Shown: positions 19,069 through 60,698 of the stretch, one piece after another
How the letters are laid out: each line of letters begins with the position of its first letter
Position numbering within the stretch: position 1 is the first letter of the stretch
The notes under the pieces: generated by a model
Databases searched by the model: none
The model's input: only the letters and a program-made list of their open reading frames with translations
Told to the model about the DNA's origin: nothing
Program-made: the position numbers and the translations under genes
From: Eubacteriales bacterium
GTDB taxonomy: Bacteria > Bacillota > Clostridia > Oscillospirales > JAAYXM01
Assembly (NCBI GenBank): GCA_045636865.1
Contig: JAZTYJ010000025.1
Coordinates: 10,679 to 74,678, forward strand
Length of the DNA stretch: 64,000 bases
Direction: 5' to 3'

Positions 19069-19145
19069 GGCCCGGTAGTTCAGTTGGTTAGAACGCTAGC
19101 CTGTCACGCTAGAGGTCGTGGGTTCGAGCCCCATCCGGGTCGCCA
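19069..19145 (+). tRNA. tRNA-Asp (anticodon GTC), CCA encoded
   Basis: Hand-folded cloverleaf: acceptor GGCCCGG/CCGGGTC, anticodon arm CTAGC-CTGTCAC-GCTAG, T-arm GTGGG-TTCGAGC-CCCAT. Confidence 0.9.
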
Positions 19146-19152
19146 TTTTTTT

Positions 19153-19230
<78 letters not shown>

Positions 19231-19232
19231 CT

Positions 19233-19275
19233 AAAACCCCTGTAACCGCAACGGTTACAGGGGTTCTTGTTTTAT
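19233..19275 (+). terminator. intrinsic terminator after tRNA-Thr
   Basis: AACCCCTGTAACCG-caa-CGGTTACAGGGGTT followed by CTTGTTTTATT. Confidence 0.8.
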
Positions 19276-19348
19276 TCTGAAGTTGTGCAGTTAGCGGAGT
19301 TTGTATAACGATTGTATAACAAATGTGTTTTTCAGTATCAAAATACAT

Positions 19349-20272
19349 TTATCTAACAAAACCACTTTCTTGTAATCTTTGATCCAGGTGGTCAAATACA
19401 TACTGGTATTTATCAAGACTGACGCCCGATATATTGGCATATGCCTTTTGAATTATGTCAGGCAAACTTTCGATATCTCTCGCTTTGTATTTATTATCGC
19501 GATTAAGTCTTCCTTCTGCGCCCATACTATGTATCGTTCGTGAACCCATCTGATATATTTCTATTGTCTCTATTTTCTTTGTGGAAGAATTAAGAATTGA
19601 ATTCAAGAAAGCTTTATCGTTGACACTTGGCATAATAATATAATCAGGCTTTAAACGTTCAATATCAGAACGGATATATTCATGAGAATCACTCAGAAAA
19701 CTAATATTGCCTGCGTAGTCTTTATTTATGTTTTTCTTTTCTTTTTTCAGTGCTTCTCTGTCGGATAGGTTTGGATTTTCCCTGACTATGCGCTGGTATT
19801 CAGTTTCTATACTGAATTTCCCGTAATTACCAAATGCGATTGTTTCATAAAACGCACGAGGTTCATCCACAGTCTCTCCTCTTATAATTCCAGCAAGATA
19901 CATAACCGCAGTTGCCAGGCTTCCTCTGTTCATCGGAGTTATGTGAACATTCGGAAAGAACGGTGTTGCATTCAAAAAGGACTCTTCAAAACATTTGCGG
20001 TGTCGATTCTCCGCCTGTGTGTCATCATCCAGCCACGGACGATTGGTTTCCTCACCACAACAATAATCAGTCAGAACCTCTGCACTCGCATAAACAAGGA
20101 TTCTCTTTTCTTGTTCAGCATAATACTTGCCTACAAACGGAATTGTCGGCACAACCATTTCACTTCTTTTGCCCTCGCGTATTTTATGAACTGCCCATTT
20201 TGGAAGTCCAGCCTGCTGTATTTTTCTATAATCATCAAGCAACTCGTTTATTATCTGTTCGTAAGTATTCAT
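19349..20272 (-). CDS. hypothetical protein, distant UDG-fold-like paralogue (last gene of the 4-gene operon)
   Basis: 307 aa: ...PTIPFVGKYYAEQEKRILVYASAE...IERLKPDYIIMPSVNDKAF. It shares the pattern [aromatic pair]-x-(K)R-hydrophobic strand-E and L(K/R)P-x-x-hydrophobic strand with the 239-aa and 224-aa neighbours. Confidence 0.3.
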   Translation of the reverse strand: MNTYEQIINELLDDYRKIQQAGLPKWAVHKIREGKRSEMVVPTIPFVGKYYAEQEKRILVYASAEVLTDYCCGEETNRPWLDDDTQAENRHRKCFEESFLNATPFFPNVHITPMNRGSLATAVMYLAGIIRGETVDEPRAFYETIAFGNYGKFSIETEYQRIVRENPNLSDREALKKEKKNINKDYAGNISFLSDSHEYIRSDIERLKPDYIIMPSVNDKAFLNSILNSSTKKIETIEIYQMGSRTIHSMGAEGRLNRDNKYKARDIESLPDIIQKAYANISGVSLDKYQYVFDHLDQRLQESGFVR

Positions 20273-20289
20273 CCTCTTATTCCCTCTCT

Positions 20290-21009
20290 TTAATCATCAA
20301 GCAAAAAAGTTTTAAATATGTTATTTGCGTGATTAAAACTATCCTCTCTGCTCCAACCCGGTCTTGACGGATGATAGGAATTCGCAAAAATCGTTGATTC
20401 TCTTTCAAAAAAGCGAACACCGTTCTTTATCTTTTCTTCAGCATCGTTTACAAATACTTTCTTTGCAAAATCGAATGTTCCTCCACACAATACCAATGTC
20501 GGTTTCAACTCACTCAACTGATGCTTCAATATCTCTCTGCGCTGACTATTATCAAGATATTTATCCATCTCATTCCAGTCAGTACTTTCTGTGCCCCAAC
20601 TCTTTTTGAGATTAACAATCGATACATTCAGCAGCGATCCACACAATTTATCGTCAACTATTATTCCGTTTTCGTCGATTAACTCAACTACTTCCGGCAT
20701 TCTTTTTTCATCAATACATATATTGAACATTCTCGACCACATGGCTATATTCCTGTAAACAGAACGATAAAGAGGTTCTTCCTGCAGAGCCTGCTTATAA
20801 ACCCAATCCATATAATTCCAATCAGTCAGAACATCGTTTCTATCACCATTATTGTCGTTTCCATTTGTCTCTTTCAGCAAGAGCATCAATCTTTTATCCC
20901 GCGAAAAGAAGTGCTCGCTTACTACCCCATCGAAACATATTCCGTTATTCGGATTGTTATCTGTGATAATCTCTCTGTGCTGCTTCAAATATTCCTTAAA
21001 CACAATCAT
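20290..21009 (-). CDS. hypothetical protein with uracil-DNA-glycosylase-superfamily-like motifs
   Basis: 239 aa: KRLMLLLKETNGND (position of UDG motif A), ELKPTLVLCGGTFDF and ANSYHPSRPGW (HPS-type motif B). Motif-level inference only. Confidence 0.35.
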   Translation of the reverse strand: MIVFKEYLKQHREIITDNNPNNGICFDGVVSEHFFSRDKRLMLLLKETNGNDNNGDRNDVLTDWNYMDWVYKQALQEEPLYRSVYRNIAMWSRMFNICIDEKRMPEVVELIDENGIIVDDKLCGSLLNVSIVNLKKSWGTESTDWNEMDKYLDNSQRREILKHQLSELKPTLVLCGGTFDFAKKVFVNDAEEKIKNGVRFFERESTIFANSYHPSRPGWSREDSFNHANNIFKTFLLDD

Positions 21010-21073
21010 CTTCCTTTCGCAACTATTTCATTTTAATTATATCACACCTGCTGTTTTTTTCAAGAAAAGCATA

Positions 21074-21427
21074 TCACACAACATATCCCTCGTTACACAT
21101 ATGGCACTGGTAGTGTTCATCATATGAAAGGATATATTTTTTGTCTTTATACACATCTGTTACCCTGTCTATATCTCGCTCCATGCATCTGTCGTAATAG
21201 ATAAGATATGTATCATCGCTCTTTCGGTAAACCACGCGACCTCTGGGGAAGTAGTCAAAATCAACACCGAATTCCTTTGCATAGTTCTTCTGCCAGATGA
21301 GGTTATGGCTGTATGGATAGTTTTTAAAATCCCCATACTCCTCCGCATCCGCAAGCGAACAAGAGTGAAACAAAAGCCCACCTTCTACAAAAAAGAAAAG
21401 CGCAGGTCCGATTTTGTTATTATTCAT
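21074..21427 (-). CDS. hypothetical protein (117 aa)
   Basis: AAGGAG RBS. Sequence FFFVEGGLLFHSCSL...YGDFKNYPYSH...DYFPRGRVVYRK...CHMCNEGY. No family recognised. Confidence 0.4.
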   Translation of the reverse strand: MNNNKIGPALFFFVEGGLLFHSCSLADAEEYGDFKNYPYSHNLIWQKNYAKEFGVDFDYFPRGRVVYRKSDDTYLIYYDRCMERDIDRVTDVYKDKKYILSYDEHYQCHMCNEGYVV

Positions 21428-21458
21428 ATTCTTCTCCTTTCACTTTTTAACGTATGAT

Positions 21459-22253
21459 TCAAGACAAATTTCTTCTTTTTCTTTCTTTGTTCCATTTTTT
21501 GATTACATCCTGATGTTCCGGTTTTTCAGAAAGCGTTTTATATGCTATTTGCAAAAACTCACGGTCACCCAGTCCGCCTTCTTGAAAATCATGCAAAAAC
21601 ATTCCGCACGCAGTATAAGGATCTTCAAAACCTGATGAAACTTCGCAGATATATTTTGTCAAGTTTCCGACTTCGGAGTTTATGTCCAAATAGTATTCTA
21701 CCGTTTTTTTATCTATCAAGTAGCGAGACAAGTCAATTGTTTTATGATTGCAAACCAACTCGCAATATGCACTGTGTGAACCGAAAACATCAATCACTTT
21801 GATTTCCTTAGCCAAGAAACTGTGATTCCCTTCACAAACTATGACACGAGTTATTTCTTTCGCCAATTTTTCTTGTTCAATATACGCCTGCATCGTAAGT
21901 TGCCAAATTTGAGAAACATAACAATCATACTGTAGAAGAATTATTTCTGCCCCTTTCATTTCTAAAAGTTTTCGCAATTCAGATGCATTTTCACGCTCAT
22001 ACTCCTCGACAGTATATTCACCATACAGTGCACCACTTAACGCATCTGCCCTCATCCTTATAAATTCTTCGGACAGTATTTCCGGAGTAGCCGATCCTAC
22101 CGCCATATAATCGTAAAGGTAAATGACCTTTGTTTGATCCAAACCCTTTATTCGACAAAGGTCCCCCTTCATACTATCGCCATCAACTAAAAAAACTGCA
22201 TTGTCATACTTTTGAGCTAATTCTTCAACTACGTTTTCCAATGTTTTTTTCAT
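21459..22253 (-). CDS. hypothetical protein (264 aa), first gene divergent from the WYL regulator
   Basis: Start at ATG 22253 (MKKTLENV) with a GGGGTGG RBS. No family recognised. Confidence 0.4.
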   Translation of the reverse strand: MKKTLENVVEELAQKYDNAVFLVDGDSMKGDLCRIKGLDQTKVIYLYDYMAVGSATPEILSEEFIRMRADALSGALYGEYTVEEYERENASELRKLLEMKGAEIILLQYDCYVSQIWQLTMQAYIEQEKLAKEITRVIVCEGNHSFLAKEIKVIDVFGSHSAYCELVCNHKTIDLSRYLIDKKTVEYYLDINSEVGNLTKYICEVSSGFEDPYTACGMFLHDFQEGGLGDREFLQIAYKTLSEKPEHQDVIKKWNKERKRRNLS

Positions 22254-22307
22254 ATCATTCCACCCCTTCATTTTTAATTTGGCATATATATAAATATCAT
22301 ATTTAGC

Positions 22308-22341
22308 TGTACAAAAATCTGTACATATGCTATGATATAAT
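22308..22341 (+). promoter_or_regulatory. divergent promoter/operator region with tandem CTGTACA boxes
   Basis: The palindromic hexamer TGTACA occurs at 22308-22313 and 22320-22325 (12-bp phasing). It overlaps a TGTACA-17nt-TATGAT promoter 30 nt before the WYL gene RBS (AAGGAG 22351-22356). Confidence 0.4.
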
Positions 22342-22364
22342 AGAAATCGAAAGGAGCGATTATT

Positions 22365-23342
22365 ATGCTTACAGACCGTGCAAATGCCATTTGTCTTCTC
22401 GAAATTCTGCGTGAATTTTCAGACGAGGAACACATCCTCCCCATGCGCGAGATTATACCTAAAATGAATCTTCTCTACGGAATCACCCCGGACAGAAGAA
22501 CTGTTTACAGCGCAATATCCCTGCTCACCGAACTTGGACACGATATTTCTACATATGAAGAAAACGGAATCGGATACTATCTGCGTAGCCGTGAATTTGA
22601 GAAATCAGAAATTCACCTTCTCAGCGATGCAGTGTATTCATTTCCTTTTATCTCTCCGAAGCAGACGGACGAACTTGTCGGAAAATTACAAAAACAACTC
22701 AGTGTTCATCAGCGAAAGAGCTTTAAGCACCTGACAATCGCAAAAAGCGAGAAGAAGACGGATAACCGTCAGGTATTTCTCAACATTGAGTGTCTCGACG
22801 AGGCAATCGACACAGGCAAACAAGTAAGCTTTACATACCTGCAATACGACTTGGATAAAAAACAGCATCCACGCCGCGAAAAACCTTATGTAGTAAACCC
22901 TTATGAACTTATATACACAAATGAACATTATTACCTTATCTGCAACTACGTCGGACACGATAACACAAGTTTTTACCGAATTGACAGAATGTGCGATATA
23001 AAGATACTCGAAACTAAGATTGATAAGAAAACGAGTGATCTCTCCGATTTTCGCAATGCAACTTATGCATTTGCGAGTGAACCTGAGAGAATTGTTCTCC
23101 ATTGTGATAAGTGGATGATTGATGAAGTTATCGACAAATTCGGAACGGATATTTCCATCACAAAGCTTGACGAGGAAAAAATATCGGTAAGCTTCACAGC
23201 TCCCTCAACCGGAATCAAGTTCTTTGCGTTGCAGTATCTGCCCTATATGGAAGTCATAAAACCCGAATGGATAAGGAGCGAGATTGATGAGGACTTACAG
23301 AAAGTTTTGCACCGGAGAAAAAACTCTTCTGAGAATAAATAA
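22365..23342 (+). CDS. WYL-domain transcriptional regulator (wHTH-WYL-WCX architecture, BrxR/CapW-like)
   Basis: 325 aa. N-terminal wHTH (ICLLEILREFSDEEHILPMREI...DRRTVYSAISLL). Central WYL-type region (VSFTYLQYD...PYVVNPYELIYTNEHYYLICNY...FYRIDRM). C-terminal extension. Confidence 0.75.
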   Translation: MLTDRANAICLLEILREFSDEEHILPMREIIPKMNLLYGITPDRRTVYSAISLLTELGHDISTYEENGIGYYLRSREFEKSEIHLLSDAVYSFPFISPKQTDELVGKLQKQLSVHQRKSFKHLTIAKSEKKTDNRQVFLNIECLDEAIDTGKQVSFTYLQYDLDKKQHPRREKPYVVNPYELIYTNEHYYLICNYVGHDNTSFYRIDRMCDIKILETKIDKKTSDLSDFRNATYAFASEPERIVLHCDKWMIDEVIDKFGTDISITKLDEEKISVSFTAPSTGIKFFALQYLPYMEVIKPEWIRSEIDEDLQKVLHRRKNSSENK

Positions 23343-24165
23343 AGACGGATATGACGATGTAACCGGCGGCGGACACATTTATAATGAATTCAAGTTTTCT
23401 CTGACCGAAAAACTTGCCATTGTTTCAAAGGGCGGCAAATTCGGAATTCTTCTTATCCGAGAAGCACTCAACAAGGACTCAAAAGACATTTCCGAGAACA
23501 CCTTGACTGTATGTCAATGTAAATACGACAACATATGCATTATCGGAAATTACGGAGAAGATTTTTGTGATTTCCAATTGTATCAAAATGGCAAATGCGG
23601 GCTCGGCAGAGTTCGCATTACAACAGATGGACTTTACACTAAAGCTGAATTTTGTGAATTGCTGCCCTGCAAATACAAAACAGAACGCAATGAAGAATGG
23701 GCATTTATATGGCAATATTCCGATGATTGTGACTATATAAAATACTACCATAACGAAACACACGAAATCTCTGAAGAATACACCACGATACATATCAAAG
23801 CAGGTTTTCTCATCTGCCTTTACGAGGACCAAGATTTGATAACCCTTGTGCATGAACGGACAAACAAAAAGCTATTTACATGTGAGGCACATGTTGTTGA
23901 ACACCTCGCATCATACGCAGAAGGAGAAGTATTCCTCTTCAACAACTTCGATTCCGTCTTTCTCGTTTTCTGCAACACAAAAGAAATGCAGGCATATGCA
24001 ACCAAGGATTTCTCGGACATCCGTGCCGAAGTAACCTGCGATATGTTTGATAAATACCTGACCTGTCTTTCGTACAAAACGAACGAAGAGTGGTACACTC
24101 TTCCGCAAACAGGTAGTGTCATCTCGCAAAAGGATATATCGGGATCGTCACCTATTCACAAATAA
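23287..24165 (+). CDS. hypothetical protein with WG/KWG-like repeats, overlapping the regulator 3' end
   Basis: AAGGAG RBS 8 nt before ATG 23287, with a 56-nt overlap onto the WYL gene. Repeats of the type KGGKFGIL and NGKCGLGRV are present. Confidence 0.45.
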   Translation: MRTYRKFCTGEKTLLRINKDGYDDVTGGGHIYNEFKFSLTEKLAIVSKGGKFGILLIREALNKDSKDISENTLTVCQCKYDNICIIGNYGEDFCDFQLYQNGKCGLGRVRITTDGLYTKAEFCELLPCKYKTERNEEWAFIWQYSDDCDYIKYYHNETHEISEEYTTIHIKAGFLICLYEDQDLITLVHERTNKKLFTCEAHVVEHLASYAEGEVFLFNNFDSVFLVFCNTKEMQAYATKDFSDIRAEVTCDMFDKYLTCLSYKTNEEWYTLPQTGSVISQKDISGSSPIHK

Positions 24166-24230
24166 AGCACCCCTGTGCAGACATTTGCACAGGGGGTTCG
24201 TGTATAATTGTATATGGGAGGTGTAGCAGA

Positions 24231-24905
24231 ATGAATATTTCAGGACCACAACATCGACAGATGCCTTATGAGATGGCAGAAGCATACAGAGAGCTTTTTC
24301 GCATGGTAAAAAAAGAGTTTCCCGCAGAAACTCTTACATACACCTTCCCCGTTATGGGAAGCTACTATAACGAACATATCCAAATCTCCCGACTCACTCC
24401 GTTTGAGGGCGAAGATTATCCCGCAAATGACGAAGAGGCGATGCGGTATATTGAGCCCGCAGTACGACTTATGGTTATCGGTGAACACAAAATAAAGCAG
24501 ACAAAACTTACATCGAAAACTGCCGAAGAATTTTCCCGCTCCGCAGGAGATTTTATTTGCTATACAAATTACATAGCGCATTGTAGCATTGACCAAAACC
24601 ACGTTCCCGAATATCCCGGACGGATTATAGAAAAACTCAAACCCACTTCTGCACTCAACAATAAGTGGCATGAGCATATTCTTTGGTATAATCCGTTCGT
24701 TTTTGAATCTCCCGAAAACAAATCAACAAACAAGCAACTGCAGAAGCATCAGCTCCCACTTTGTCAGAAACTTCTCACTTTACATATTGACTTCTTCCGT
24801 CCTACCCATATTCTTTTTTTGGATGGATGCGAGCAATTTGCAGATGCATTTGCCGATAACAGACAGTTTATCAAAAAAATCACGAAAGCGTCTCTGCAGG
24901 CATAA
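24231..24905 (+). CDS. hypothetical protein, third UDG-fold-like paralogue
   Basis: 224 aa with GGGAGGTG RBS. FPVMGSYYNEH...VRLMVIGEHK...FFRPTHILFLDGCEQF parallels the 239-aa and 307-aa proteins. Confidence 0.3.
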   Translation: MNISGPQHRQMPYEMAEAYRELFRMVKKEFPAETLTYTFPVMGSYYNEHIQISRLTPFEGEDYPANDEEAMRYIEPAVRLMVIGEHKIKQTKLTSKTAEEFSRSAGDFICYTNYIAHCSIDQNHVPEYPGRIIEKLKPTSALNNKWHEHILWYNPFVFESPENKSTNKQLQKHQLPLCQKLLTLHIDFFRPTHILFLDGCEQFADAFADNRQFIKKITKASLQA

Positions 24906-24983: not shown

Positions 24984-25019
24984 AAAAATACGGACATACG
25001 CCGGTATGTCCGTATTTTT
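24984..25019. terminator. bidirectional terminator
   Basis: AAAAATACGGACATAC-gccg-GTATGTCCGTATTTTT. Confidence 0.75.
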
Positions 25020-25098: not shown

Positions 25099-25134
25099 AA
25101 AAATCTCTCAACCCTGACGGGTTGGGAGATTTTT
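25099..25134 (+). terminator. second terminator hairpin
   Basis: AAAAATCTCTCAACCC-tgac-GGGTTGGGAGATTTTT. Confidence 0.7.
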
Positions 25135-40571: not shown

Positions 40572-43352
40572 TTATTTTATATTGATTTCCAGATCAAGAT
40601 TCTCAAATCTTGGCAGGATGAACTCAAGGTCATCCTTTGTCGCCTGCGCGAGAAGAATACCGAGTTTCCCTTCTTCGATTTCACCCAAGATATCGTTTGC
40701 TCGGATTTTACCCGATAGCATTTTGTCAACCTCTGCGTATGAATGCCCCTTTACGCCAATCTCCATAAACTCATAGGCAAAAACTTTTCTTTCTGCCATA
40801 TCCTTGAAGTTTAAGTAAACCTTGTCAAACTCTTCTCTGTGCAGAATGTGTGTTCCCTGCATATACTGGTTTTCGTATAAATGCTGATTGTAGTCATACG
40901 CGCGAAGAAGCGAAATTTCAACAAGATCGCGCAAAATCTTGAACAGGTTCACATAGTAAAGCGAGTTCTGCTCGGGCTTCACATGCCAGATGAAAATCAA
41001 GAGCTCAAGCTTGTCACGTCTCCAGACTCCTGCTGCATACATCGGCAGATTCGGCAGAAATTCCGTATTTCTCCAAATCTCATCATTTTTTATCTCATCG
41101 AGAATCGGCTTATATGTGTCAAGCGATATCGACCTTGAAACCGCGCTCAATATATCTCTCGACGACACTTCAAGTCGACCGAATGCACTCTTGTCGTTTA
41201 TTGAATATACGCTGAGGCTCTTGTTCTCAAGCGTATCCTCAAAGGTATCCATAATCTTGAGATAAAGCTTGTGCGGCTCAACGGTATCGAGCTTTCTCGT
41301 AACATCGAAGATTTTTCCGAAGCTGTCCTTTGAACCTATAATCTGCTTTTTGAGGTCACGCTTTTCGTCAAATGTATCCTGATAAAGCTCACGTGTAAAC
41401 TCAAGCTTTTCTTCAAGGAGACCTATCTGTTCATTGGCGAATCTTATTTTATCGTCCTTAGTAAGGCGAACATACCCTGAAACTGCTCCGACCAGGAAAA
41501 AGTAAACAAACGCAAACCAGTTCGAGGGTTCATAGAATATTGTAAGCCAGCTCGTTCCTGAAACAATCTTCGCAATAAACCACGCAACCGACGAAAGCCC
41601 CGCTGCAAAAAGTCCGGAGTAAAGACCATGAACGGTTGCAACTATAACGATAAACGCCATTCTGAAATCGACTATCGAGAACATTACCGATGAGCCCGTT
41701 GCGAGATTTAAAAGCTCCGTGATAATGAACATAAGCGCAATTTCCACAGCCTTTATTATGGGACTATGCTCCCCCAACCACTTTCTGACCCTACTCCAGA
41801 AATCCGTTACCTTGAGATTTTTTTCGACAAGGAATTTTTCATATTCTTCTTCGATGTCGTCTATAATAGATATTCTCGAAAACCAACCGTATTCATTTCG
41901 AAGTGCTGTGTTCTTTATCTCAAGAAGCGCCCCTTCTTCTTCGCCTGTGTACTTTACACGAAGAGACGGGTTTAATTCCGAAATCTTCCTCATCACATCA
42001 CCAAATGTGATATTGAACTCATCGCTTACATTGAGCGTGCCGATTCCTTCCTGCCAGTTTTCAAGGAAGCGCGCAACAAGAACCGAAACATCGTGCATAG
42101 AGATAAAGAAAGCGCCTGAGCCTTCTGTTTCCTTTAACGTAACAGTTCCTTTTTCCATATCGGCAAAAGCTCTGTTCAGGAAGTCACCCTCAAGCATTCC
42201 GCTGTACAGGTGAGGAATTCTTACAATCTTTATATCAACACCAAAATGCTTTGTATAGAATTCGCAAAGATTCTCCTTTGACAGCGTAATAACGCTTATG
42301 TCCTTTTTATTTGAATATGCACCGTCAAGAGACGAGAAATATATAACCTTTGCATCTTTTTGGTATTTTGCAGTATGTCCCAATATCTCACGCAGTTTTT
42401 CCGTATCAGGAGCTTCTTCCGAACGGTATGTAAGCTCCCTTGCAAAGAATACAACAACGTCAAAATCGTATGTCTCAAATATTCTATCATAAGGAATCTG
42501 CTTTCCGTTATAAACCTTGACTCTTCCCTTTGATTTTAGATGCGTCTCCCCTGCGATGAGTATATTATTATTTTCAAAAGTATCTTCTATGAATTTTTCC
42601 GTGACATAACCTGTATTTCCCACAAGTAAAATTCTTTTTGTTGTAAGAGTATTCGGATCTGTAACGATGCTGTTCTTGCTTGCAAGCTGTTCTCTTATCT
42701 CAAGAAGGTCGTTGTTGTTAACAACGTTGAGAAGACACTCAACCAGAAAATCGTCAAACGCGCCGCTCATGCCGTTTGAAATCATCTCTATCGCAACATC
42801 CTGAGAGAAGGCATCCTTATAGCTTCTTGTGCTCGTGAGCGCATCAAAAGCGTCAGCCATCGCGACAATGCGTGCAGCGATGGGTATCTCTTCTCCTTTC
42901 AAGCCTTCAGGATAACCTGTTCCATCTATTCTCTCGTGATGATATTTTGCAATATCCTTCGCGTGTTTTATGATTTTTTCATCAATGTCCAATGAAATTC
43001 CATCAATCATTTCATTGCCAAAAATCGTATGTTTTTTTACTATATCATATTCTATCGAAGAAAGCTTACCCGGAAAATTGAGGATACTTTCCGGAATTTT
43101 ACTTTTTCCTATATCGTGAAGTGAGGATGCGATTGACATATACCTTATGTCTTCTTCTGACAAAACATATTTATCTGTTACATTATTAAGCTCACGAAGC
43201 ATAAGCTCTGTGAGCATTCTTACATGATAAATATGAAAACCCGTTTCACCATTGAGCATCTCAGGGATGTTGTCGCTTGAAACATCAACAACTTCAAGAT
43301 ATTTTCTCTCGTCTTCATTATTCAGCACAAGAAGAGGGTTTACTGATGCCAT
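40572..43352 (-). CDS. pelD: tripartite fusion: HD-GYP phosphodiesterase domain + SDR/epimerase-like domain + PelD-like module (4 TM, GAF-like, degenerate GGDEF)
   Basis: - HD-GYP: SLHDIGKSKIP...KYHHERIDGTGYPEGL...ADAFDALTSTRSYK.
- Rossmann-type: ILLVGNTGYVTEKF, with LSK in place of the YxxxK tyrosine.
- Hydrophobic block at residues ~540-640.
- C-terminal GAF/GGDEF-like region lacking a GGDEF motif (RANDILGEIEEGKLGILL). Confidence 0.7.
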   Translation of the reverse strand: MASVNPLLVLNNEDERKYLEVVDVSSDNIPEMLNGETGFHIYHVRMLTELMLRELNNVTDKYVLSEEDIRYMSIASSLHDIGKSKIPESILNFPGKLSSIEYDIVKKHTIFGNEMIDGISLDIDEKIIKHAKDIAKYHHERIDGTGYPEGLKGEEIPIAARIVAMADAFDALTSTRSYKDAFSQDVAIEMISNGMSGAFDDFLVECLLNVVNNNDLLEIREQLASKNSIVTDPNTLTTKRILLVGNTGYVTEKFIEDTFENNNILIAGETHLKSKGRVKVYNGKQIPYDRIFETYDFDVVVFFARELTYRSEEAPDTEKLREILGHTAKYQKDAKVIYFSSLDGAYSNKKDISVITLSKENLCEFYTKHFGVDIKIVRIPHLYSGMLEGDFLNRAFADMEKGTVTLKETEGSGAFFISMHDVSVLVARFLENWQEGIGTLNVSDEFNITFGDVMRKISELNPSLRVKYTGEEEGALLEIKNTALRNEYGWFSRISIIDDIEEEYEKFLVEKNLKVTDFWSRVRKWLGEHSPIIKAVEIALMFIITELLNLATGSSVMFSIVDFRMAFIVIVATVHGLYSGLFAAGLSSVAWFIAKIVSGTSWLTIFYEPSNWFAFVYFFLVGAVSGYVRLTKDDKIRFANEQIGLLEEKLEFTRELYQDTFDEKRDLKKQIIGSKDSFGKIFDVTRKLDTVEPHKLYLKIMDTFEDTLENKSLSVYSINDKSAFGRLEVSSRDILSAVSRSISLDTYKPILDEIKNDEIWRNTEFLPNLPMYAAGVWRRDKLELLIFIWHVKPEQNSLYYVNLFKILRDLVEISLLRAYDYNQHLYENQYMQGTHILHREEFDKVYLNFKDMAERKVFAYEFMEIGVKGHSYAEVDKMLSGKIRANDILGEIEEGKLGILLAQATKDDLEFILPRFENLDLEINIK

Positions 43353-43423
43353 AACTTTTCATCCTCCTTTCACAAAATTAAAATAATTATATTTTTGTAT
43401 GCAAACTTTATTCTTGATATATT

Positions 43424-43452
43424 ATTATAAAACATTTTTTGATTTTTTTCAA
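43424..43452 (-). promoter_or_regulatory. promoter of the pel operon
   Basis: Minus strand: TTGAAA, 17 nt, TATAAT, ~70 nt upstream of the pelD-fusion ATG (RBS AAAGGAGGA). Confidence 0.6.
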
Positions 43453-43478
43453 CACCCACCGTTATATTATGACAATAA

Positions 43479-43513
43479 AATCCCTATGATAGAACAAAAC
43501 TATCATAGGGATT
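43479..43513 (-). terminator. terminator after the 60-aa gene
   Basis: AATCCCTATGATAG-n7-CTATCATAGGGATT followed by TTTATT on the minus strand. Confidence 0.7.
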
Positions 43514-43516
43514 CAT

Positions 43517-43699
43517 TTAACGTTTTAACTTTGTTTTACTTTGCCTTTTTCTCATGTTGCACGATTTCCCGTTATCAAAGACACCGATGAAAGTTTTGTC
43601 TGTAATCTTCAACTCATTGGCATGAGTTGCTGTGTGAACTTCGTGGTGAAGTCCAGGGTTTCTCGTCTGATTATTATTTACATAGTAAAGCTGATACAT
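43517..43699 (-). CDS. small conserved-looking hypothetical protein (60 aa)
   Basis: Strong RBS AGGAGGT 8 nt before the ATG, plus its own terminator. The MYQLYYVNNNQT...HHEVH...IGVFDNGKSC pattern recalls a widespread family of small YYVN...HEVH proteins (recollection only). Confidence 0.55.
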   Translation of the reverse strand: MYQLYYVNNNQTRNPGLHHEVHTATHANELKITDKTFIGVFDNGKSCNMRKRQSKTKLKR

Positions 43700-43817
43700 T
43701 GTAATTTACCTCCTGCCACTCAAAAGCAGCTTTATATTTTAGTATCTATGTGAACTAAAACATGAAAAAACTTGCCTATTCAACGACGCTCCTTCCCGGC
43801 AAAATTCCCCGAAGACA

Positions 43818-43932
43818 TTGACAAGCAAGTTCAAATATGATAAAATTACAAAACCTTGGTAATCAATCATTAACTTGGTTGATGCCTTCAAAGCTCCGAC
43901 GATATTGGCGTGTTGTCGGAGTTTTGCTTTTT
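43818..43932 (+). ncRNA. candidate ~80-nt small RNA (promoter to terminator unit)
   Basis: TTGACA (43818-43823), 17 nt, TAAAAT (43841-43846). An internal hairpin ATCAA..TTGAT is followed by terminator CTCCGAC-n14-GTCGGAG-TTTTGCTTTTT (43894-43932). No RBS/ORF lies in between. Confidence 0.4.
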
Positions 43933-44239
43933 CACATTTCAAGCATCCTCACTATACCATAGTTACCAGTTTTTTGTCAAGCGATTTCCACAACATATTA
44001 CATATAATATATATATAGTATACAACATCTTGTGTTTTTTCATTTATTTGTACCATCTTTCAAATTCACAACCTATTTTCCTCTTCTGTGTTGACTGCTC
44101 ACCTCTTGTTCAATTTTTGTTTAACAACGAGATTTTGGCAGATGCAAGATATTCGTTATAATCGTTTTGGTTTTTGTGTGTTTTGGTGATATATCAAGAC
44201 ATTTCACCCGCGAAAAGTTAGTGAATTTTTCGCAGGCCA

Positions 44240-48683: not shown

Positions 48684-50015
48684 TTAATCGTCTGTCTCTG
48701 TAACAATGCCGAGTGCCTGAGCCATAAACCTAAGCTCAACATTCTTATGGCCGATAACAAAGCAACCGTGGTGAGAATAGAGCTTGTTTATAAATTTGTG
48801 TCCGTCCTTAACGCGAACAATACCACCGTTTCTGCAGTCTGAACCCGGATACTGTGCATATCCTTCAAGCTCTGCCTCTACAGTCAAAAGGCTCTTGAGG
48901 TTCGGATGAATCTTTACAAGTGTAACATGTCCCTTCGGGAGGTCACCGTCCACTACCATAGCATTGTCATTTACCATTGCAAGAACTTTCGGCTTAACTT
49001 CCCAACGTGAGCACATTTTTCTCGGAGCAAATCCCATATATCCGCAATGAACGAGAAGCATTGTGTCTTCAGGATTCGGAACATCCGGGAATGATGTTAT
49101 TCTCTCATGCTTGAGAGCCGCCATACCGATAAGAACCGGATAAATATTTGTCATCATTACATCCTGCTTCAATGCCCGGTTGACGATATACTGTGTAAAC
49201 ATTGTCATTGTATCTGCTTCGCAGGCCCATAATGTATCATCATCTTCATACATAAGGTTATATGCAAGGCAGGGTGTTGTGTCGATGTAAATAGATTCGT
49301 TGAGGCAGTTTACTGCAATGCACTTTATGTTTTTGTCCTCGTCAGCTGCTTCTCTTAAAACCATATAAAGCTTTACTGCTGAACGAAGTTGCTTTTCGTT
49401 GAGCTGTGTGTAGTTGATTTTCTTCTGCTCAATTACTGCATCAACTTCATTGTCCGGAATTGACATTGCACGTTTTGCAAGCTCTTTGTAGCTTCTGACT
49501 TCAATGGTAATGCCGAAGTGCTCCTTAAGGTCGTTCATCCAGCTTTCTTCCCACCAATAGAAGCGCTTGTTGATTTCAGGCTGCTGTGTAATTACCGGAA
49601 CGCCGGGGTTATCCTGATAAACAACAAATTTTGCAGTTTTCATTTCGCGTCTGAGCGCTAATGCGCGAAGTGCTATGCGAGTATACTCAAGCTTATACGG
49701 TGTGATGAGCTCGACATCATGCGAACGAAGAAATGCTATCATTTCCCAGTCCCACATATTTACTGTTCCGAACTCAGATGTAACAATCATAATCGGTTTA
49801 TTGATAGCCCTGAATTTGTCGAGGCTACGATATGCAACGCCCATGAGAACCGGGAAAAGAACGCCGTCACAATCCTCAGGAATTTCAGTTCCCAATTCTA
49901 CCGGAGACAAAAACTCCGCTTCCTCTCCAACGAGCCCCTCAAGGCTTTTGATCTGCGCCTCAAACTCTTCATCTTTATAACCAGGGAAATAAATCGGTAC
50001 TATTCTTGCTTTCAT
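48684..50015 (-). CDS. putative sugar isomerase (FucI/AraA-like fold), uncertain
   Basis: 443 aa cytosolic protein divergent from an AraC regulator. Weak resemblance to the L-fucose/L-arabinose isomerase family. Confidence 0.3.
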   Translation of the reverse strand: MKARIVPIYFPGYKDEEFEAQIKSLEGLVGEEAEFLSPVELGTEIPEDCDGVLFPVLMGVAYRSLDKFRAINKPIMIVTSEFGTVNMWDWEMIAFLRSHDVELITPYKLEYTRIALRALALRREMKTAKFVVYQDNPGVPVITQQPEINKRFYWWEESWMNDLKEHFGITIEVRSYKELAKRAMSIPDNEVDAVIEQKKINYTQLNEKQLRSAVKLYMVLREAADEDKNIKCIAVNCLNESIYIDTTPCLAYNLMYEDDDTLWACEADTMTMFTQYIVNRALKQDVMMTNIYPVLIGMAALKHERITSFPDVPNPEDTMLLVHCGYMGFAPRKMCSRWEVKPKVLAMVNDNAMVVDGDLPKGHVTLVKIHPNLKSLLTVEAELEGYAQYPGSDCRNGGIVRVKDGHKFINKLYSHHGCFVIGHKNVELRFMAQALGIVTETDD

Positions 50016-50146
50016 ATTTCACGCTTCCTTCCTTAATTATTTTGAATTAAGCCGTCTCTCTGGAAAAAGTATAGCATATTTAAGATGTCTGTGATATAAT
50101 AAATGAAACAAAAAATATCAAGTTTTTACGATTTGGGTGAATTTGG

Positions 50147-51025
50147 ATGAATACGTTTCTTGAGCAGCCTTTTACGATAGACGGTATTAAAAGCCAGATA
50201 CATTGTCTCGACAGAAAAATGAAACCGTCGGATAATTACATTCAGGAAAACCACAATTATCATTATCACGATTATATAGAGCTTCTTTTTTCTTTGGATT
50301 CCGAAGCAGTTGTCTGGATAAACCAGGAAAGCTTCAATTTCACAAACGGTGATATGCTGATTGTAAATTCAAACGAGCCTCATCGCTTGTCCTTCCTCGG
50401 TCCGTCACACTATATAGTCGTTAAAATCGCACCGGAACTTCTTTATTCCGACGGAAACTCTCTTTTTTTATCCAAATATCTCCTTCCGTTTTTAAAAGAA
50501 AATCCATATAAGCAAACTTTCAAAAGCGAAAATTTTAGAAACCTCGACTTATCAAGCTGTTTTGAAGGCATAATGAAGGAATGGAACGAAAAAAAGCCCG
50601 CTTACGAGCTTGCGATATATTCAATTATTTTGAGAATCTTCACCGAGGTTTTCAGGCACCATTCCCTGAACAACCCCGCATCACTTAAAATCAATATAAG
50701 CGAGCGTTTAAGGCACACACTTGTATATATATCAGAAAATTTTGACACCATAACAGAGAAAGATGCAGCAAACTACTGCAACTACAGTTGTAATTATTTC
50801 TCTCACGTTTTCAAAAAGACTTTCGGCAAAAATTTCCATGATTATATAACTGCCCTGCGGCTGAGCGAGGCTGAAAAGAAGCTCATTTCTTCTGATTGTG
50901 ACATTACAGAAATTGCGCTTTCTTCAGGTTTTTCTTCGGCAAGTCATTTTATTTCTCAATTTAAGAAAACGCGCGGTATTACGCCTTACCAATTCAGAAA
51001 GAAATACATCAGCTCCTCTTTTTAA
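50147..51025 (+). CDS. AraC-family transcriptional regulator (cupin sensor + HTH)
   Basis: C-terminus ITEIALSSGFSSASHFISQFKKTRGITPYQFRKK. N-terminal cupin-like domain (HYHDYIELLF). Confidence 0.85.
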   Translation: MNTFLEQPFTIDGIKSQIHCLDRKMKPSDNYIQENHNYHYHDYIELLFSLDSEAVVWINQESFNFTNGDMLIVNSNEPHRLSFLGPSHYIVVKIAPELLYSDGNSLFLSKYLLPFLKENPYKQTFKSENFRNLDLSSCFEGIMKEWNEKKPAYELAIYSIILRIFTEVFRHHSLNNPASLKINISERLRHTLVYISENFDTITEKDAANYCNYSCNYFSHVFKKTFGKNFHDYITALRLSEAEKKLISSDCDITEIALSSGFSSASHFISQFKKTRGITPYQFRKKYISSSF

Positions 51026-51260
51026 AATTCACCCACACGCCTTCAACTATCGGATAAAAGGATATGACTTTGTGTCAGTGCGCAAACACAGAAGCATAGT
51101 GTTTTCAGAGTGGTCGTTGTTTTCACGAAAAAACGCGCTTTATTCTGTTGCACATATCCTCAAAAGCTGTTATGATTATTGTAACGAACGGAGTTGCATA
51201 ATCCATTATGTAAACGGATAATATTCTTACTGTATCTTTAATTGCATATGAGGTTGTAAA

Positions 51261-51596
51261 ATGAACAATAAAAACAAATTTGTATTATCAATTATCGGAG
51301 TAGTTGTGAGCATTGCATTGCTCGTTATAATCGCGATACTCGCAGAAGAATCGGTGATAAGGGAAACTTCTGCAATCGTGCTCATCGTTATTTCTGAAAT
51401 TCTGCTTTTAGTTGCAGTTTTCTTTGCCGCAAAGGTTGACTATGAAACAGGCGTTTACGAATGCAGGAACTGCCATCATATATTCAAGCCAAAATTCATG
51501 GCATATTTGCTTGGTCCGCACAGCTTGACAACAAGATCTCTCAAATGCCCCGAATGCGGCAAATCAACCTGGTGCAAGAGAAGAAGTGCTAAGTAA
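51261..51596 (+). CDS. small membrane protein with C-terminal zinc ribbon
   Basis: Two TM helices, then CRNCHH...CPECG. Confidence 0.45.
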   Translation: MNNKNKFVLSIIGVVVSIALLVIIAILAEESVIRETSAIVLIVISEILLLVAVFFAAKVDYETGVYECRNCHHIFKPKFMAYLLGPHSLTTRSLKCPECGKSTWCKRRSAK

Positions 51597-51708
51597 GGAG
51601 ATAATTGGTATAGTCTAAAAATAATTCGCGAAATTTACAAAGTACAATATGAGGTGAATTAAATGAAAATAAGTTTTGATAAAAATAAATCTATAAGGAG
51701 TTGCAACT

Positions 51709-51897
51709 ATGGCAAAAAGTAAGTGGGTAGCGTTTTTCTTGTGTTTATTTCTCGGATATTTAGGAATACATAAATTTTACGAGGGCAGAGTTTTACTTGG
51801 GATTGTATATCTATGCACATGCGGTCTTTTCGGAATAGGCATAATTTTTGACCTGATTTCGTTATTCTTCAAACCGAATCCATATTATCCGGGATAA
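51709..51897 (+). CDS. TM2-domain small membrane protein
   Basis: KWVAFFLCLFLGYLGIHKFYEGR..GI.YL.TCGLFGIG is a typical TM2 signature. Confidence 0.6.
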   Translation: MAKSKWVAFFLCLFLGYLGIHKFYEGRVLLGIVYLCTCGLFGIGIIFDLISLFFKPNPYYPG

Positions 51898-51937
51898 AAC
51901 TGCAAACGCAAAACAAGTGCCAAAACATCCAAATTTC

Positions 51938-51969
51938 AAAAGCCTTGAAGCTTTCGCTTCAAGGCTTTT
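51938..51969. terminator. bidirectional terminator hairpin (repeat family copy 1)
   Basis: AAAAGCCTTGAAGC-tttc-GCTTCAAGGCTTTT. Confidence 0.75.
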
Positions 51970-51978
51970 GGTTTAATT

Positions 51979-53358
51979 TTATACTTTTTTCAAGAATATA
52001 ATCTGCTCGGGAGGTACTGTAAACACACTTCCGCGCGCGCCGCATCTTCGGTCTTCCCACTCATCCGTAAGCTCTGCTTCCCACGGTGTCTTTCCGATGT
52101 TTGAAAATACAAGGTACTGCTCTTCATTTGAGAACAAGGATGCAATAATCTCATCCGGCACTTTGGGATTTTTAAGCAACGTTGTTTCGTGAAGCTCTAT
52201 ATGCGCAACGGTATCGTCTTTTACCATAGGGAGATATAACTGCAGATACTCTCCGTATCTGTCCACCAAGTCATCCGGATCGGGAATTGATGAAAATTCA
52301 CCGTGTGTATACGGACCATTCGGATGTTCTTTTCCCCACTTTGCTGCATTTCTCCAGAACTGAACTATCGATTTTTCTCCCGGATTATTCATATCAACAT
52401 CATACCACGGAACATCAGCAGTTGTCTTATCGCGAGTTAAGCGTCTGCCGTGATTTAAGCAAGTAAACTGCATATACGGAATAGAAAGAACAAACGGATA
52501 GTCCGGACCGAATTCAGTCTGGGTCTTTCTGTCAACAAGATTTATAATGTAAGGCATATATGCTTTACCCTTAAGAAGATCTGCACTTGACCCGATATTT
52601 TCTCCGATCATCAGATAGTCATACACACGCTCTTTGCAAGGCGGATAGTAATTCTCTCCAATATGCAAAATCGCTGTTCCTCCACGACTCTTTATGCCAT
52701 GGTAAAGCTGTGAGTAAAAGTCCTCAGCATATGGGTCATACGGAAAATCCTCAGGCTGGAAACGAGTACCGTATTTTTCAAGATGCTCGCGGCTTAAACG
52801 GAACATTTCATCCGGCGCATGATCATCATAAAGTCCGTCAACACCATACTCGTCCATAACGTTCATTGCCTTGTCATAGAGATATCCGCGCCACTCAGCA
52901 CTCTCAAGACTGCAGTTACCATATTTAAAATACTGACCAGAGAGATATATCTCCTGTTTTGCAAATTCCGGTCGGAAATCGGGGTCGTAGATGTGAAAAT
53001 ATCCCGCTGATATGTACGGCAAAATCTTAAGTCCGAAGGAATGGCACATATCTATGAATTTGCGAAATCCTTTTTCATCATGTGTAGTAAATTTATCTGC
53101 GCCAAATAAGCGAATCGCATCGTTCCACTCCTCGTGAACCTTTATATATGTGATGCCGAGTTCTGAATACTTTTTGAGTGTTTCATAATCATATTCCGTA
53201 GGCTCTATTGAGAACTTAAGCGGATATTCCCCCAAAAAGTACGACACATTTCCGGGATGATAATCGTAAATACGATGTTCATACAGACAATCTTTTACCG
53301 CTTCTCGTGCATGTTTCAGATTGTCCATACGTTTTCTTTGAAGTTCAACAGAAGTCAT
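51979..53358 (-). CDS. hypothetical TIM-barrel glycosidase-like protein
   Basis: Start at ATG 53358 (MTSVELQ) with AAGGAG RBS. ...GITYIKVHEEWNDAIRLFGADKF...GLKILPYISAGYF. Family uncertain. Confidence 0.35.
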   Translation of the reverse strand: MTSVELQRKRMDNLKHAREAVKDCLYEHRIYDYHPGNVSYFLGEYPLKFSIEPTEYDYETLKKYSELGITYIKVHEEWNDAIRLFGADKFTTHDEKGFRKFIDMCHSFGLKILPYISAGYFHIYDPDFRPEFAKQEIYLSGQYFKYGNCSLESAEWRGYLYDKAMNVMDEYGVDGLYDDHAPDEMFRLSREHLEKYGTRFQPEDFPYDPYAEDFYSQLYHGIKSRGGTAILHIGENYYPPCKERVYDYLMIGENIGSSADLLKGKAYMPYIINLVDRKTQTEFGPDYPFVLSIPYMQFTCLNHGRRLTRDKTTADVPWYDVDMNNPGEKSIVQFWRNAAKWGKEHPNGPYTHGEFSSIPDPDDLVDRYGEYLQLYLPMVKDDTVAHIELHETTLLKNPKVPDEIIASLFSNEEQYLVFSNIGKTPWEAELTDEWEDRRCGARGSVFTVPPEQIIFLKKV

Positions 53359-59928: not shown

Positions 59929-60507
59929 TTAATTCTTTAATCCATCTAAAATAAATTTAAAACCATATCTGTATCGCTTTATCGCTTCGTCCAACGAAAG
60001 TTTTCTGCCAATTGCATCAGTATTAAATCCACGGATAAAACACCAGATTGCATAACTTGTCATATCTGTGTCAACCTTTTTAACATACCCCTTACCAATG
60101 GCATAATTAAGTATCTTCTTGATTTCTTCTATCCACCATTGATAATTACTATCAGTAACAGAATCGTTTTCAAAAACATAATGTGCAAAATTCATCCTTG
60201 TTTCATAGGAAATGATAAGAGTTTTTTCAACTTCATCCATTATTTGTTCAAAAAAATCCAATTCTTCATTAAAATTAAATTTCAAACTCTCCCTAATTTT
60301 TAACACAGATCGTTCGGAAATTATATCAAGAACTTCTTCAATATTGTGAAAACGATTATAAAAAACTCTGTTTGTTATACCAAGGTATTTTAAGATTTTA
60401 CGCACGCTTATATTATGCGCATTTTCAGATAAAGTTAATTTCTCAACAGCTTCTATTATTTGTTCAGACATCTCATCATAAATCAACTTATCACAGGTAT
60501 TAGTCAT
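59929..60507 (-). CDS. TetR/AcrR-family transcriptional regulator
   Basis: HNISVRKILKYLGITNRVFYNRFHNIEEVL (TetR HTH). Start trimmed to ATG 60507 because the operator palindrome lies inside the longer track ORF. Confidence 0.8.
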   Translation of the reverse strand: MTNTCDKLIYDEMSEQIIEAVEKLTLSENAHNISVRKILKYLGITNRVFYNRFHNIEEVLDIISERSVLKIRESLKFNFNEELDFFEQIMDEVEKTLIISYETRMNFAHYVFENDSVTDSNYQWWIEEIKKILNYAIGKGYVKKVDTDMTSYAIWCFIRGFNTDAIGRKLSLDEAIKRYRYGFKFILDGLKN

Positions 60508-60524
60508 AAGAACACCCCTTGTCC

Positions 60525-60539
60525 AGCACACAGTGTGCT
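60525..60539. promoter_or_regulatory. second copy of operator AGCACACAGTGTGCT (tetR autoregulation site)
   Basis: Identical 15-bp palindrome 18 nt upstream of the tetR ATG. Confidence 0.65.
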
Positions 60540-60698
60540 GATTCATATTACCATATTATTCATTAATTGTCAATAGCTTTGTTATTCTCAATTGCTCAAA
60601 ATCACATTAAAATCATACGCTGAATCAATTTAACAATTCTTTATATACATAAAAAAACAGAACGATTTAGAATGTCATCTAAATCGTTCTGTTTTGGT

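Follow-up and report, generated by a model that had tools for sequence, protein, structure and literature searches.

A compact cluster of seven genes at positions 19349-24905 of a 64,000-nt stretch of DNA from a Eubacteriales bacterium (assembly GCA_045636865.1, contig JAZTYJ010000025.1, positions 10,679 to 74,678 of the forward strand; the whole stretch is referred to as the window) was found to be a regulator-centered mobile accessory module of ~5.5 kb that encodes proteins with a uracil-DNA glycosylase (UDG) fold. A gene for a WYL regulator is divergent from a minus-strand cargo operon of four orphan genes (g270, g117, g239, and g307) and is followed on its own strand by two more orphans, g293 and g224. 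The list of open reading frames (ORFs) bears out a first-pass annotation, made from the sequence before any database search, with respect to this divergent arrangement, the positions of all seven ORFs, the gaps between them, and a 56-nt overlap of the WYL gene with g293. Structure prediction gives g239 and g307 a UDG-superfamily fold. The best explanation, held with about even confidence, is that the locus encodes a WYL-controlled system for base excision, similar in kind to Brig and aimed at non-canonical bases of invading DNA. The anti-phage role in this explanation would follow by analogy, from the genomic context and from the precedents of Brig1, Brig2, and Brig3.

Brig1 is a UDG-superfamily enzyme that excises alpha-glucosyl-hydroxymethylcytosine (hmC) from the DNA of T-even phages (Nature 2024, PMC11078745). 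Brig2 targets thymidine-modified phages (bioRxiv 10.1101/2025.10.29.685425). Brig3 excises 5-hydroxymethylcytosine, and its operon partner BapA strips the glucose from glucosyl-hmC (bioRxiv 10.64898/2026.02.25.707755). Genes for ADP-ribosyl glycohydrolases are located near both the Brig1 and the Brig3 loci (PMC11078745; 10.64898/2026.02.25.707755).

Two proteins with a UDG-superfamily fold

What kind of protein is g239 (20290-21009, minus strand, 239 aa)? Its family consists of 60 clusters, all metagenomic, none of which is named or carries a Pfam domain, and a scan of JGI metagenomes with the g239 profile yielded three distant relatives only. Neither g239 nor g307 nor g224 matched the Pfam UDG domain (PF03167) even at E<=1, the family profiles of g239 and g307 found no UDG among PDB sequences, and the single g239 sequence had no relevant match among PDB chains. 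An AlphaFold2 model of g239 was built on the family alignment (predicted local distance difference test score, pLDDT, 91.3; predicted template modeling score, pTM, 0.90). When this model was compared with PDB by Foldseek, the first 47 matches all belonged to the UDG superfamily (UdgX, the Thermotoga family-4 UDG TM0511, and TDG/MUG), with a probability of ~1.0, E ~2e-3, and a target-normalized template modeling (TM) score of <=0.58. The matches of the same model in BFVD were phage UDGs and UDG-like domains fused to phage DNA polymerases. By this prediction, g239 is confirmed to have the fold of the UDG superfamily, an alpha/beta/alpha arrangement with parallel strands in the central sheet.

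Further evidence comes from the conserved residues. The conserved blocks in the g239 alignment are NGICFDG, LLKETNG, YRS.FRNIAMW, NLKKSWG, and VLCGG-TFDF ... YHPS.PGW. In the model, LLKETNG follows strand 1 (residues 41-45), NLKKSWG follows strand 2, VLCGG constitutes strand 3, and YHPS follows the last strand (206-210). The canonical UDG layout runs from motif A through a specificity Asn to motif B, and the motif order of g239 agrees with it. In family 4 UDGs, motif A reads GE[AG]PG and contains an acidic residue. The set in g239 is complete: an acidic residue in motif A after strand 1, an Asn after strand 2, and an HPS-type motif B, all of which are equivalent to UDG residues by position and not by superposition. 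E47, N49, N133, H213, and P214 do not vary among 28 homologues, with identities as low as 28%. The motif SYHPSRPGW, to which the first-pass annotation had drawn attention, is present at residues 211-219 and includes the invariant H213 and P214.

The last gene of the cargo operon, g307 (19349-20272, minus strand, 307 aa), belongs to a family of ~200 clusters, including a few proteins of metagenome-assembled genomes (MAGs) from Oscillospiraceae and Phascolarctobacterium. Its AlphaFold2 model (pLDDT 94.4, pTM 0.92) likewise confirms, as a prediction, a UDG-superfamily fold. The best 50 Foldseek matches in PDB were all from the UDG superfamily (SMUG1, UdgX, and family 4), with a best probability of 0.99, E from 1e-3, and target-normalized TM scores of 0.33-0.56. 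The residues that are invariant in g307 are E65 (in YASAE, at the motif-A position after strand 1), N149 and K152 (in GNYGK, after strand 2), and Q241 (in IYQM). The proteins are read as glycosylases because the models match only the UDG superfamily and residues of catalytic type are invariant at the canonical places.

The g239 and g307 families are remotely related. Alignment of the two family profiles with hhalign gave P=0.0036 and was co-linear over 223 columns with the motifs paired; its score of 28.5 compares with a maximum of 21.2 in 40 column shuffles. Pairwise BLASTP among g239, g307, and g224 found nothing significant. In other words, the common motif order that the first-pass annotation read in these three proteins is present in g239 and g307 at the level of profile and fold, but pairwise BLASTP does not detect it. 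The accompanying claim of three UDG-fold paralogues holds up for g239 and g307 after the AlphaFold2 and Foldseek check, whereas the signal for g224 is weak.

A small Cys/His-rich orphan, g117 (21074-21427, minus strand, 117 aa), appears to be a partner of g307. In a Christensenellales MAG (L014:751-2037), a g117-type domain continues in frame from the C-terminus of a g307 homologue, in a single protein of 428 aa. Because of this in-frame fusion, a Rosetta-stone link, g117 is considered functionally tied to g307. Its invariant residues are H20, C22, C80, H104, C107, and C110, together with a PRGRV motif, and the Cys/His set suggests a possible metal site. No Pfam or PDB match was found for g117, and no family. 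A copy that is 77% identical occurs in L011, one of the module copies described next.

Recurrence and mobility of the module

Do these genes keep together elsewhere? Contig look-ups for homologues, tblastn, and hidden Markov model searches showed that they do, as the candidate system of the first-pass annotation would have it: there are four independent copies of the module, and the WYL gene adjoins g307-type genes in further lineages. The set of g224, g293, and WYL on one side and g239 and g307 plus variable extras on the other was present in at least three other metagenomic backgrounds (L009/L010, L011, and L012), at different chromosomal sites. In L009/L010, the proteins are 64% (g224), 77% (g293), and 88% (WYL) identical to those of the window, and the cargo consists of a 119-aa gene, g239 (76%), and g307 (81%). 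The corresponding values in L011 are 66%, 32%, and 88%, and its cargo comprises g307 (41%), a 135-aa protein, a 367-aa PF07733 protein, g117, and g239 (81%). In L012, they are 53%, 36%, and 78%, with g239 (75%) and g307 (42%) as the cargo. Between module copies, g293 and g307 evolve fast.

The boundaries of the module are sharp. On a 52-kb contig (L009), it lies between amidohydrolase genes and DUF896/transketolase, with no adjoining tRNA gene. A blastn comparison of the window with L009 aligned only 19348-21142 and 22284-24817. The homology starts at the g307 stop codon and ends near the end of g224, and it skips g270 and most of g117.

Two of the extras in the cargo operon of L011 (L011:3935-5489) are of interest in their own right. 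The 135-aa protein has weak, sub-threshold zinc-ribbon matches (best E 0.004). In the 367-aa protein, the Pol III alpha NTPase/palm domain (PF07733, 1.3e-22) stands by itself, which is unusual outside the replicase.

The WYL regulator and its control region

The 325-aa product of the gene at 22365-23342 (plus strand) is, judging from its domain matches, a regulator of the winged helix-turn-helix (wHTH)-WYL-WCX type. It matched PF13280 with E=1.5e-9 (above the cut-off) and the PADLOC WYL profile with 5.9e-27. The WCX match was below the cut-off (E=0.0052) in the window copy and reached 2.4e-7 in the L013 homologue, and the N-terminal helix-turn-helix (HTH) was weakly seen (HTH_11, E=0.39). The single sequence found nothing in PDB. 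A profile of ten homologues found 7U02, 7TZV, and 8TP8 (~4e-10), which we take to be DriD in fragments and at full length, and PafBC 6SJ9 (5e-9), as well as 7P5X. No BrxR or CapW was found at E<=1, so the label of a BrxR/CapW-type regulator given in the first-pass annotation is not supported.

The protein resembles both the activators DriD and PafBC and the repressors CapW and BrxR in having WYL and WCX domains, a palindrome in its own promoter region, and an adjacent divergent operon. It differs from the general pattern in that its sequence similarity is to DriD and PafBC only, its HTH is weakly seen, and its gene is translationally coupled to the hypervariable orphan g293. Activators (DriD, PafBC) and repressors (CapW) of the wHTH-WYL-WCX architecture all use single-stranded DNA (ssDNA) as a ligand (PMC11662680). 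Because both kinds do so, a switch triggered by ssDNA is a reasonable inference either way. BrxR and CapW bind palindromes of ~20 bp (PMC11662680, PMC9122601).

A candidate operator and both promoters are located in the divergent control region (22276-22364). The 93-bp divergent intergenic region contains two perfect inverted arms, ATATCATA (22294-22301) and TATGATAT (22331-22338), which flank TGTACA-N6-TGTACA (22308-22325). Promoter-like hexamers are present on both strands, of which TATAAT (22336-22341) is invariant, and the ribosome binding site (RBS) of the WYL gene lies in the same region. The ~95 bp before the WYL start are near-invariant in the window, L009, L011, and L012, and the conservation stops abruptly on the cargo side. 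When one mismatch is allowed, the 64-kb window has a single TGTACA pair, compared to 0.11 expected, and L011 and L012 have an exact one at the corresponding position. The region has the look expected of an operator for a dimeric wHTH protein. Does the regulator activate or repress? The invariant -10 TATAAT has no good -35 at 17 nt, and the second TGTACA is 10 nt upstream of it; because of this arrangement, the sign of regulation is not readable from the sequence.

The remaining orphan genes

The plus-strand arm of the module continues with g293 (23287-24165, 293 aa). Its overlap with the WYL gene would be 59 nt if it began at the alternative start, 23284. Only six clusters of g293 were found among 1.84 billion representative proteins in an exhaustive search, and in module copies with 78-88% identity of the WYL proteins, the g293 proteins share 30-36%. 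On this comparison, it is a very fast-evolving or diversifying orphan. It had been described as WG-repeat-like, which did not survive the search: g293 had no PF14903 match at E<=1, and four homologues had none at E<=0.01. Nor did any of the homologues match another Pfam family. The resemblance is limited to two conserved GK[FC]G motifs, and an hhalign comparison with a neighbor protein selected by regular expression for its WG motif gave P=0.015. A match to a 2723-aa RTX protein was set aside as an effect of repeats or composition. As single sequences, neither g293 nor g270 had a relevant match among PDB chains.

A GC-rich hairpin with a 10-bp stem (24170-24208, plus strand) lies directly 3' of the g293 stop codon. 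It has no T-tract on the plus strand and is followed by TGTATAAT and a strong RBS ahead of g224. This segment may act in processing or attenuation and provide g224 with an internal promoter.

Is g224 (24231-24905, plus strand, 224 aa) a third protein with the same fold? Its family has 8 clusters. Against the g307 family, hhalign gave P=0.002 over 42 N-terminal residues, with a score of 29.1 versus a maximum of 22.1 in 40 shuffles, and a relaxed alignment remained co-linear up to the helix-(K/R)P-strand element. The comparison with the g239 family was not significant (P=0.028; 2 of the 40 shuffles reach the score). The protein stops ~25 residues past the strand-3 equivalent and therefore has no motif-B strand, and no conserved acidic residue follows RLMV(I/V)G at the motif-A position. 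It is possibly a C-terminally truncated relative of a g307-type protein, and if it is a UDG-fold relative, it is probably truncated and inactive.

The most distant g224 homologue, P0188 (277 aa, in L044:8541-11743), has a C-terminal extension that is absent from the module copies, and its gene is followed by PDDEXK_4 nuclease-like and HD-domain genes. By eye, the extension resembled the motif-B region of g239. This likeness is unproven, as hhalign aligned only the helix-KP-strand segment (P=0.006).

The first cargo gene, g270 (21459-22253, minus strand), encodes 264 aa from the ATG at 22253, or 270 aa if translation began at 22271. The start at 22253 was preferred in the first-pass annotation too, and rightly so, since a Shine-Dalgarno sequence, AAGGGGTGG, precedes 22253 and none is present before 22271. 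An exact-sequence look-up of the 270-aa version gave nothing, and the real start is probably 22253. No homologue of g270 was found in any fetched locus, in viral contigs, or in PDB. Its position is a variable cassette, which in L009 is occupied by the 119-aa gene.

Chromosomal setting in the window

Within the cargo operon, the genes are separated by 31 nt (g270/g117), 64 nt (g117/g239), and 17 nt (g239/g307). On the g224 side, the module is closed by a bidirectional terminator hairpin with a 16-bp stem (24984-25019), with a second hairpin at ~25109-25124, as the first-pass annotation had noted. On the other side, outside the module, lie the plus-strand genes for tRNA-Asp (19069-19145) and tRNA-Thr (19153-19228) and a strong terminator (19235-19265). 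The tRNA adjacency is thus real, and an Rfam scan found the two tRNAs and nothing else. However, the further claim that the module is the tRNA-proximal end of an island was not borne out. The ten flanking genes encode transporters, TrmO, YunB, GH18-SLH, EAL, GGDEF, DUF4956, and VTC proteins, and LigA is also encoded in the window. Because the flanking genes on both sides are housekeeping, the module is a lone insertion rather than the end of a defense island. No integrase was found, nor did the far side of the module have an att-like direct repeat of the tRNA 3' end; therefore, tRNA-targeted integration is not supported.

The GC content of the module is 0.37-0.40, as opposed to 0.43-0.51 in the 5 kb to its left and 0.40-0.43 to its right. 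Other GC dips in the window, at 43001-44000 (0.34), 50001-52000 (0.36), and 60001-61000 (0.31), may mark acquired segments. As the first-pass annotation had surmised, the six non-WYL proteins match no named family, with zero significant matches in Pfam, NCBIfam, PHROGs, and PADLOC, and PADLOC matched no known defense system except for the WYL gene itself.

Homologues of g239 and g307 in other genomes

Homologues of g239 occur in gene neighborhoods of several kinds. In L001/L002 (L001:1649-4199), g239 is accompanied by genes for a WYL protein (28% identity), DUF6508, a Macro protein, and a small VWA-like protein. In L045 (1026-5819), the genes encode a Macro protein, an ArsC/glutaredoxin-like protein, a 147-aa protein, g239, a small VWA-like protein, and an ADP-ribosylglycohydrolase (ARH). 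In L007, g239 lies between AbiH and DUF4268; in L005, it occurs with two orphans beside a PRiA4-ORF3/SEC-C protein; and in L049, it occurs with a 130-aa orphan opposite a beta-CASP nuclease. A pairing of a UDG-fold gene with a gene for an ADP-ribose hydrolase thus recurs across unrelated families, in L001, in L045, and in the published Brig1 and Brig3 loci.

A search of 185,579 species genomes turned up homologues of g307 in 27, which span Clostridia, Negativicutes, Bacteroidales, Treponema, Planctomycetota, Deltaproteobacteria, Acidobacteriota, and BRC1. A WYL gene is located directly upstream of the g307 homologue in L013, L018, and L039, and one gene upstream in L047/L048. Among the 96 neighbor ORFs of 22 g307 loci, Pfam and PADLOC identified KAP NTPases (2), ResIII/DrmD-like helicases (2), SoFic (2), WYL (2-3), and WG-repeat proteins (3). 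The defense flavor of the contexts of the two families is real but moderate.

Are the two families carried by phages or plasmids? At the protein level, plasmid records contained no relatives of g239 or g307, and phage records contained no relatives of g307. IMG/VR yielded one distant relative of g239 and none of g307 or g270. At the DNA level, the only match in phage and plasmid records was to the WYL gene, whose 5' two thirds (22362-23011) are 65% identical to MT838960.1, an unannotated 4.7-kb "Bacteriophage sp." record from human faeces.

The sole g239 relative from the viral collection (30% identity, L040:6670-14698) lies in an apparent proteobacterial integrative element of the CP4-57 type. 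This element also carries a YfjP-like GTPase, an antirestriction protein, DUF932, YagK/YfjJ, a resolvase, and a weak WYL protein. The g239-like gene of L040 had no match in complete E. coli genomes. Gene pairs encoding a MoxR-type AAA ATPase and a DUF2201 (VWA-metallopeptidase-like) protein were observed at L044:1820-4241 and L047:1-2292, a few genes from the distant g224 homologue in L044 and from the g307 homologue in L047, with DnaB_C or DnaA fragments nearby. The occurrence of these pairs with DnaB_C or DnaA fragments suggests a shared type of mobile element.

Likeness to the Brig enzymes and other glycosylases

The g239 and g307 proteins are not members of the Brig1 family, and what they have in common with it is the fold and the type of context. 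As with Brig1, Brig2, and Brig3, their UDG fold is seen only by structure, they are annotated as hypothetical, they are rare and horizontally spread, and they lie in a low-GC context. Neighbors of the ADP-ribosyl-hydrolase type are another trait that the g239 homologues share with Brig1 and Brig3, and Brig3 shows that a glycosylase can work in an operon with an accessory enzyme. There are also differences. Brig1 and Brig2 work singly and Brig3 together with BapA (Brig2 and Brig3 being compared by description only), whereas the present module has two, perhaps three, UDG-fold proteins, a dedicated WYL regulator, and three further orphans. A phage phenotype is known for the Brig enzymes, whereas the module is known from sequence alone.

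Among other UDGs, the best structural matches of g239 and g307 are family 4/UdgX, SMUG1 (family 3), and MUG/TDG (family 2). The two proteins differ from these in having no profile match to Pfam UDG, no noted cysteine pattern for an Fe-S cluster, and large helical insertions, with query-normalized TM scores of 0.25-0.48. They also differ in that g307 has a Gln in place of the motif-B His and that the context is accessory and not housekeeping.

Proposed function and its alternatives

How could such a module work? In the favored explanation, that of a base-excision module of the Brig kind, the conserved, divergent palindromic promoter would drive the regulator gene together with g293 and g224, the latter being probably a truncated relative of the UDG-fold proteins. 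The regulator would control a cargo operon whose constant members are g239 and g307, with g117 as the Cys/His-rich partner of g307. The analysis shows the order of the genes, the predicted fold of g239 and g307, their conserved motifs, the recurrence and mobility of the module, and a conserved control region. From these we infer that the enzymes are glycosylases, what they act on, that ssDNA is the ligand, which way the regulation runs, and that phages are the target. Resting expression would be set by the regulator on the TGTACA-N6-TGTACA palindrome. Single-stranded DNA from phage replication or DNA damage would then bind the WYL domain and turn the operon on. The two glycosylases would flip out and excise modified bases of the invading DNA, and the resulting abasic sites would block replication, as they do for Brig1, Brig2, and Brig3. 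With two different pockets, more kinds of modified bases would be covered. A role in genetic conflict is proposed because the families are rare (60, ~200, 8, and 6 clusters for g239, g307, g224, and g293), patchy, and mobile, have variable partners, and include the hypervariable g293 and g307.

Several results weigh against this explanation. With Brig1 itself, whose sequence was taken from the supplement of the Brig1 paper, hhalign gave P=0.25, 0.41, and 0.71 for the family profiles of g239, g307, and g224, that is, no sequence relation. The structural matches have Foldseek E values of only ~1e-3 and target-normalized TM scores of 0.4-0.58, owing to the large insertions. The motif-B His is missing from g307, in which the invariant Q241 stands after the strand at residues 235-239. 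Family 2 UDGs also have no motif-B His, and its loss does not exclude activity. The nearest solved relatives of the regulator, DriD and PafBC, are activators of the DNA-damage response. No known defense gene is near the module in the window, where PADLOC detected the WYL gene only and the flanks are housekeeping, and ordinary neighbors, many of them metabolic, surround about two thirds of the distant g307 loci. Finally, four of the seven proteins (g117, g270, g293, and g224) have no assigned role.

Some of the same observations would suit a damage-inducible accessory repair module, in which a WYL activator like DriD or PafBC senses ssDNA after damage and specialized glycosylases rid host DNA of damaged or adducted bases. 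The regulator profile matches DriD and PafBC and not BrxR or CapW; the perfect invariant -10 with no good -35 at 17 nt and a TGTACA half-site 10 nt upstream would suit an activator; UDG-fold enzymes are classically repair enzymes; the L011 copy includes a Pol III alpha palm-domain protein; and the flanks in the window are housekeeping, including ligA. However, the families are extremely rare and patchy, they occupy different chromosomal sites with sharp boundaries, their partners vary (AbiH, Macro, ARH, nucleases), and g293 and g307 are hypervariable. Since rarity, mobility, varying partners, and hypervariability are traits of conflict systems and not of repair genes, a repair module is less favored and appears rather unlikely, although it is the main rival, given the affinity of the regulator to DriD and PafBC. 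The hydrolase neighbors point in another direction, namely a module that processes DNA modified with sugar or ADP-ribose, by excision or by recognition for hydrolase partners, and either protects against DNA-ADP-ribosylating toxins or attacks sugar-modified phage DNA. The g239 homologues lie beside Macro proteins in two unrelated arrangements and beside an ADP-ribosylglycohydrolase, the same type of neighbor is found in the Brig1 and Brig3 loci, and Brig3 works with a modification-stripping hydrolase, BapA. Yet Macro and ARH genes are missing from the module in the window, the association comes from three contig families, and the ARH gene was dispensable for defense in the Brig3 study (10.64898/2026.02.25.707755). 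A role of this kind is unlikely.

Another possibility is abortive infection, in which de-repressed glycosylases attack normal bases of any DNA and kill or arrest the infected cell, with g224 or g293, made alongside the regulator, as an inhibitor or antitoxin. The tight co-expression of the regulator with two orphans, one of which (g224) resembles a UDG-fold remnant without motif B, the AbiH neighbor in L007, and the known control of toxic systems by WYL proteins (PMC9122601) are consistent with it. On the other hand, nothing observed points to toxicity, most loci with g239 or g307 homologues have neither g224 nor g293, and the known Brig enzymes are specific for modified bases; such a toxin is very improbable. 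The UDG-fold proteins might also be non-catalytic binders of DNA or nucleotides in a module whose role is unrelated to base excision. The lack of a Pfam UDG match at E<=1, the modest TM scores, the missing His of g307, and the loss of the whole motif in g224 would all fit. This account is disfavored, and is the least probable of those considered, because the Glu, Asn, and His-Pro of g239 are invariant at the three canonical positions down to 28% identity, which is hard to explain without a pocket under selection.

If the favored explanation of base excision in invading DNA is correct, a division of labor can be imagined, although in this detail it is quite improbable. The E/N/H pocket of g239 and the E/N/Q pocket of g307 would excise different bases, possibly ADP-ribosylated or glycosylated ones; g224 and g293 would be sensors of lesions or phages, or inhibitors; and the abasic sites and repair gaps would make ssDNA that is sensed by the WYL protein, resulting in positive feedback. 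Substrates with ADP-ribose or sugar are hinted at because Macro and ARH partners recur in the g239 family and at the Brig1 and Brig3 loci.

Implications

UDG-fold glycosylases against phage DNA with modified bases were found only in 2024-2026, and annotation based on sequence misses defense glycosylases with this fold (Brig1-3: PMC11078745, 10.1101/2025.10.29.685425, 10.64898/2026.02.25.707755). UDG-fold defense glycosylases and the control of defense genes by WYL proteins have been described already. What the present locus adds is two unannotated UDG-fold families of ~60 and ~200 clusters, mostly from gut-type metagenomes, which travel together with a WYL regulator dedicated to the pair, a conserved candidate operator, and orphan partners. 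If the proteins are active, glycosylase-based defense can be multi-component and transcriptionally gated by an ssDNA sensor. They would also offer new base-excision specificities, useful for mapping or editing modified bases, and a regulator-operator pair for studying WYL proteins of the DriD/PafBC type outside Actinobacteria and Caulobacter. Should the locus turn out to serve repair, it would exemplify base-excision repair that is damage-inducible and moves horizontally.

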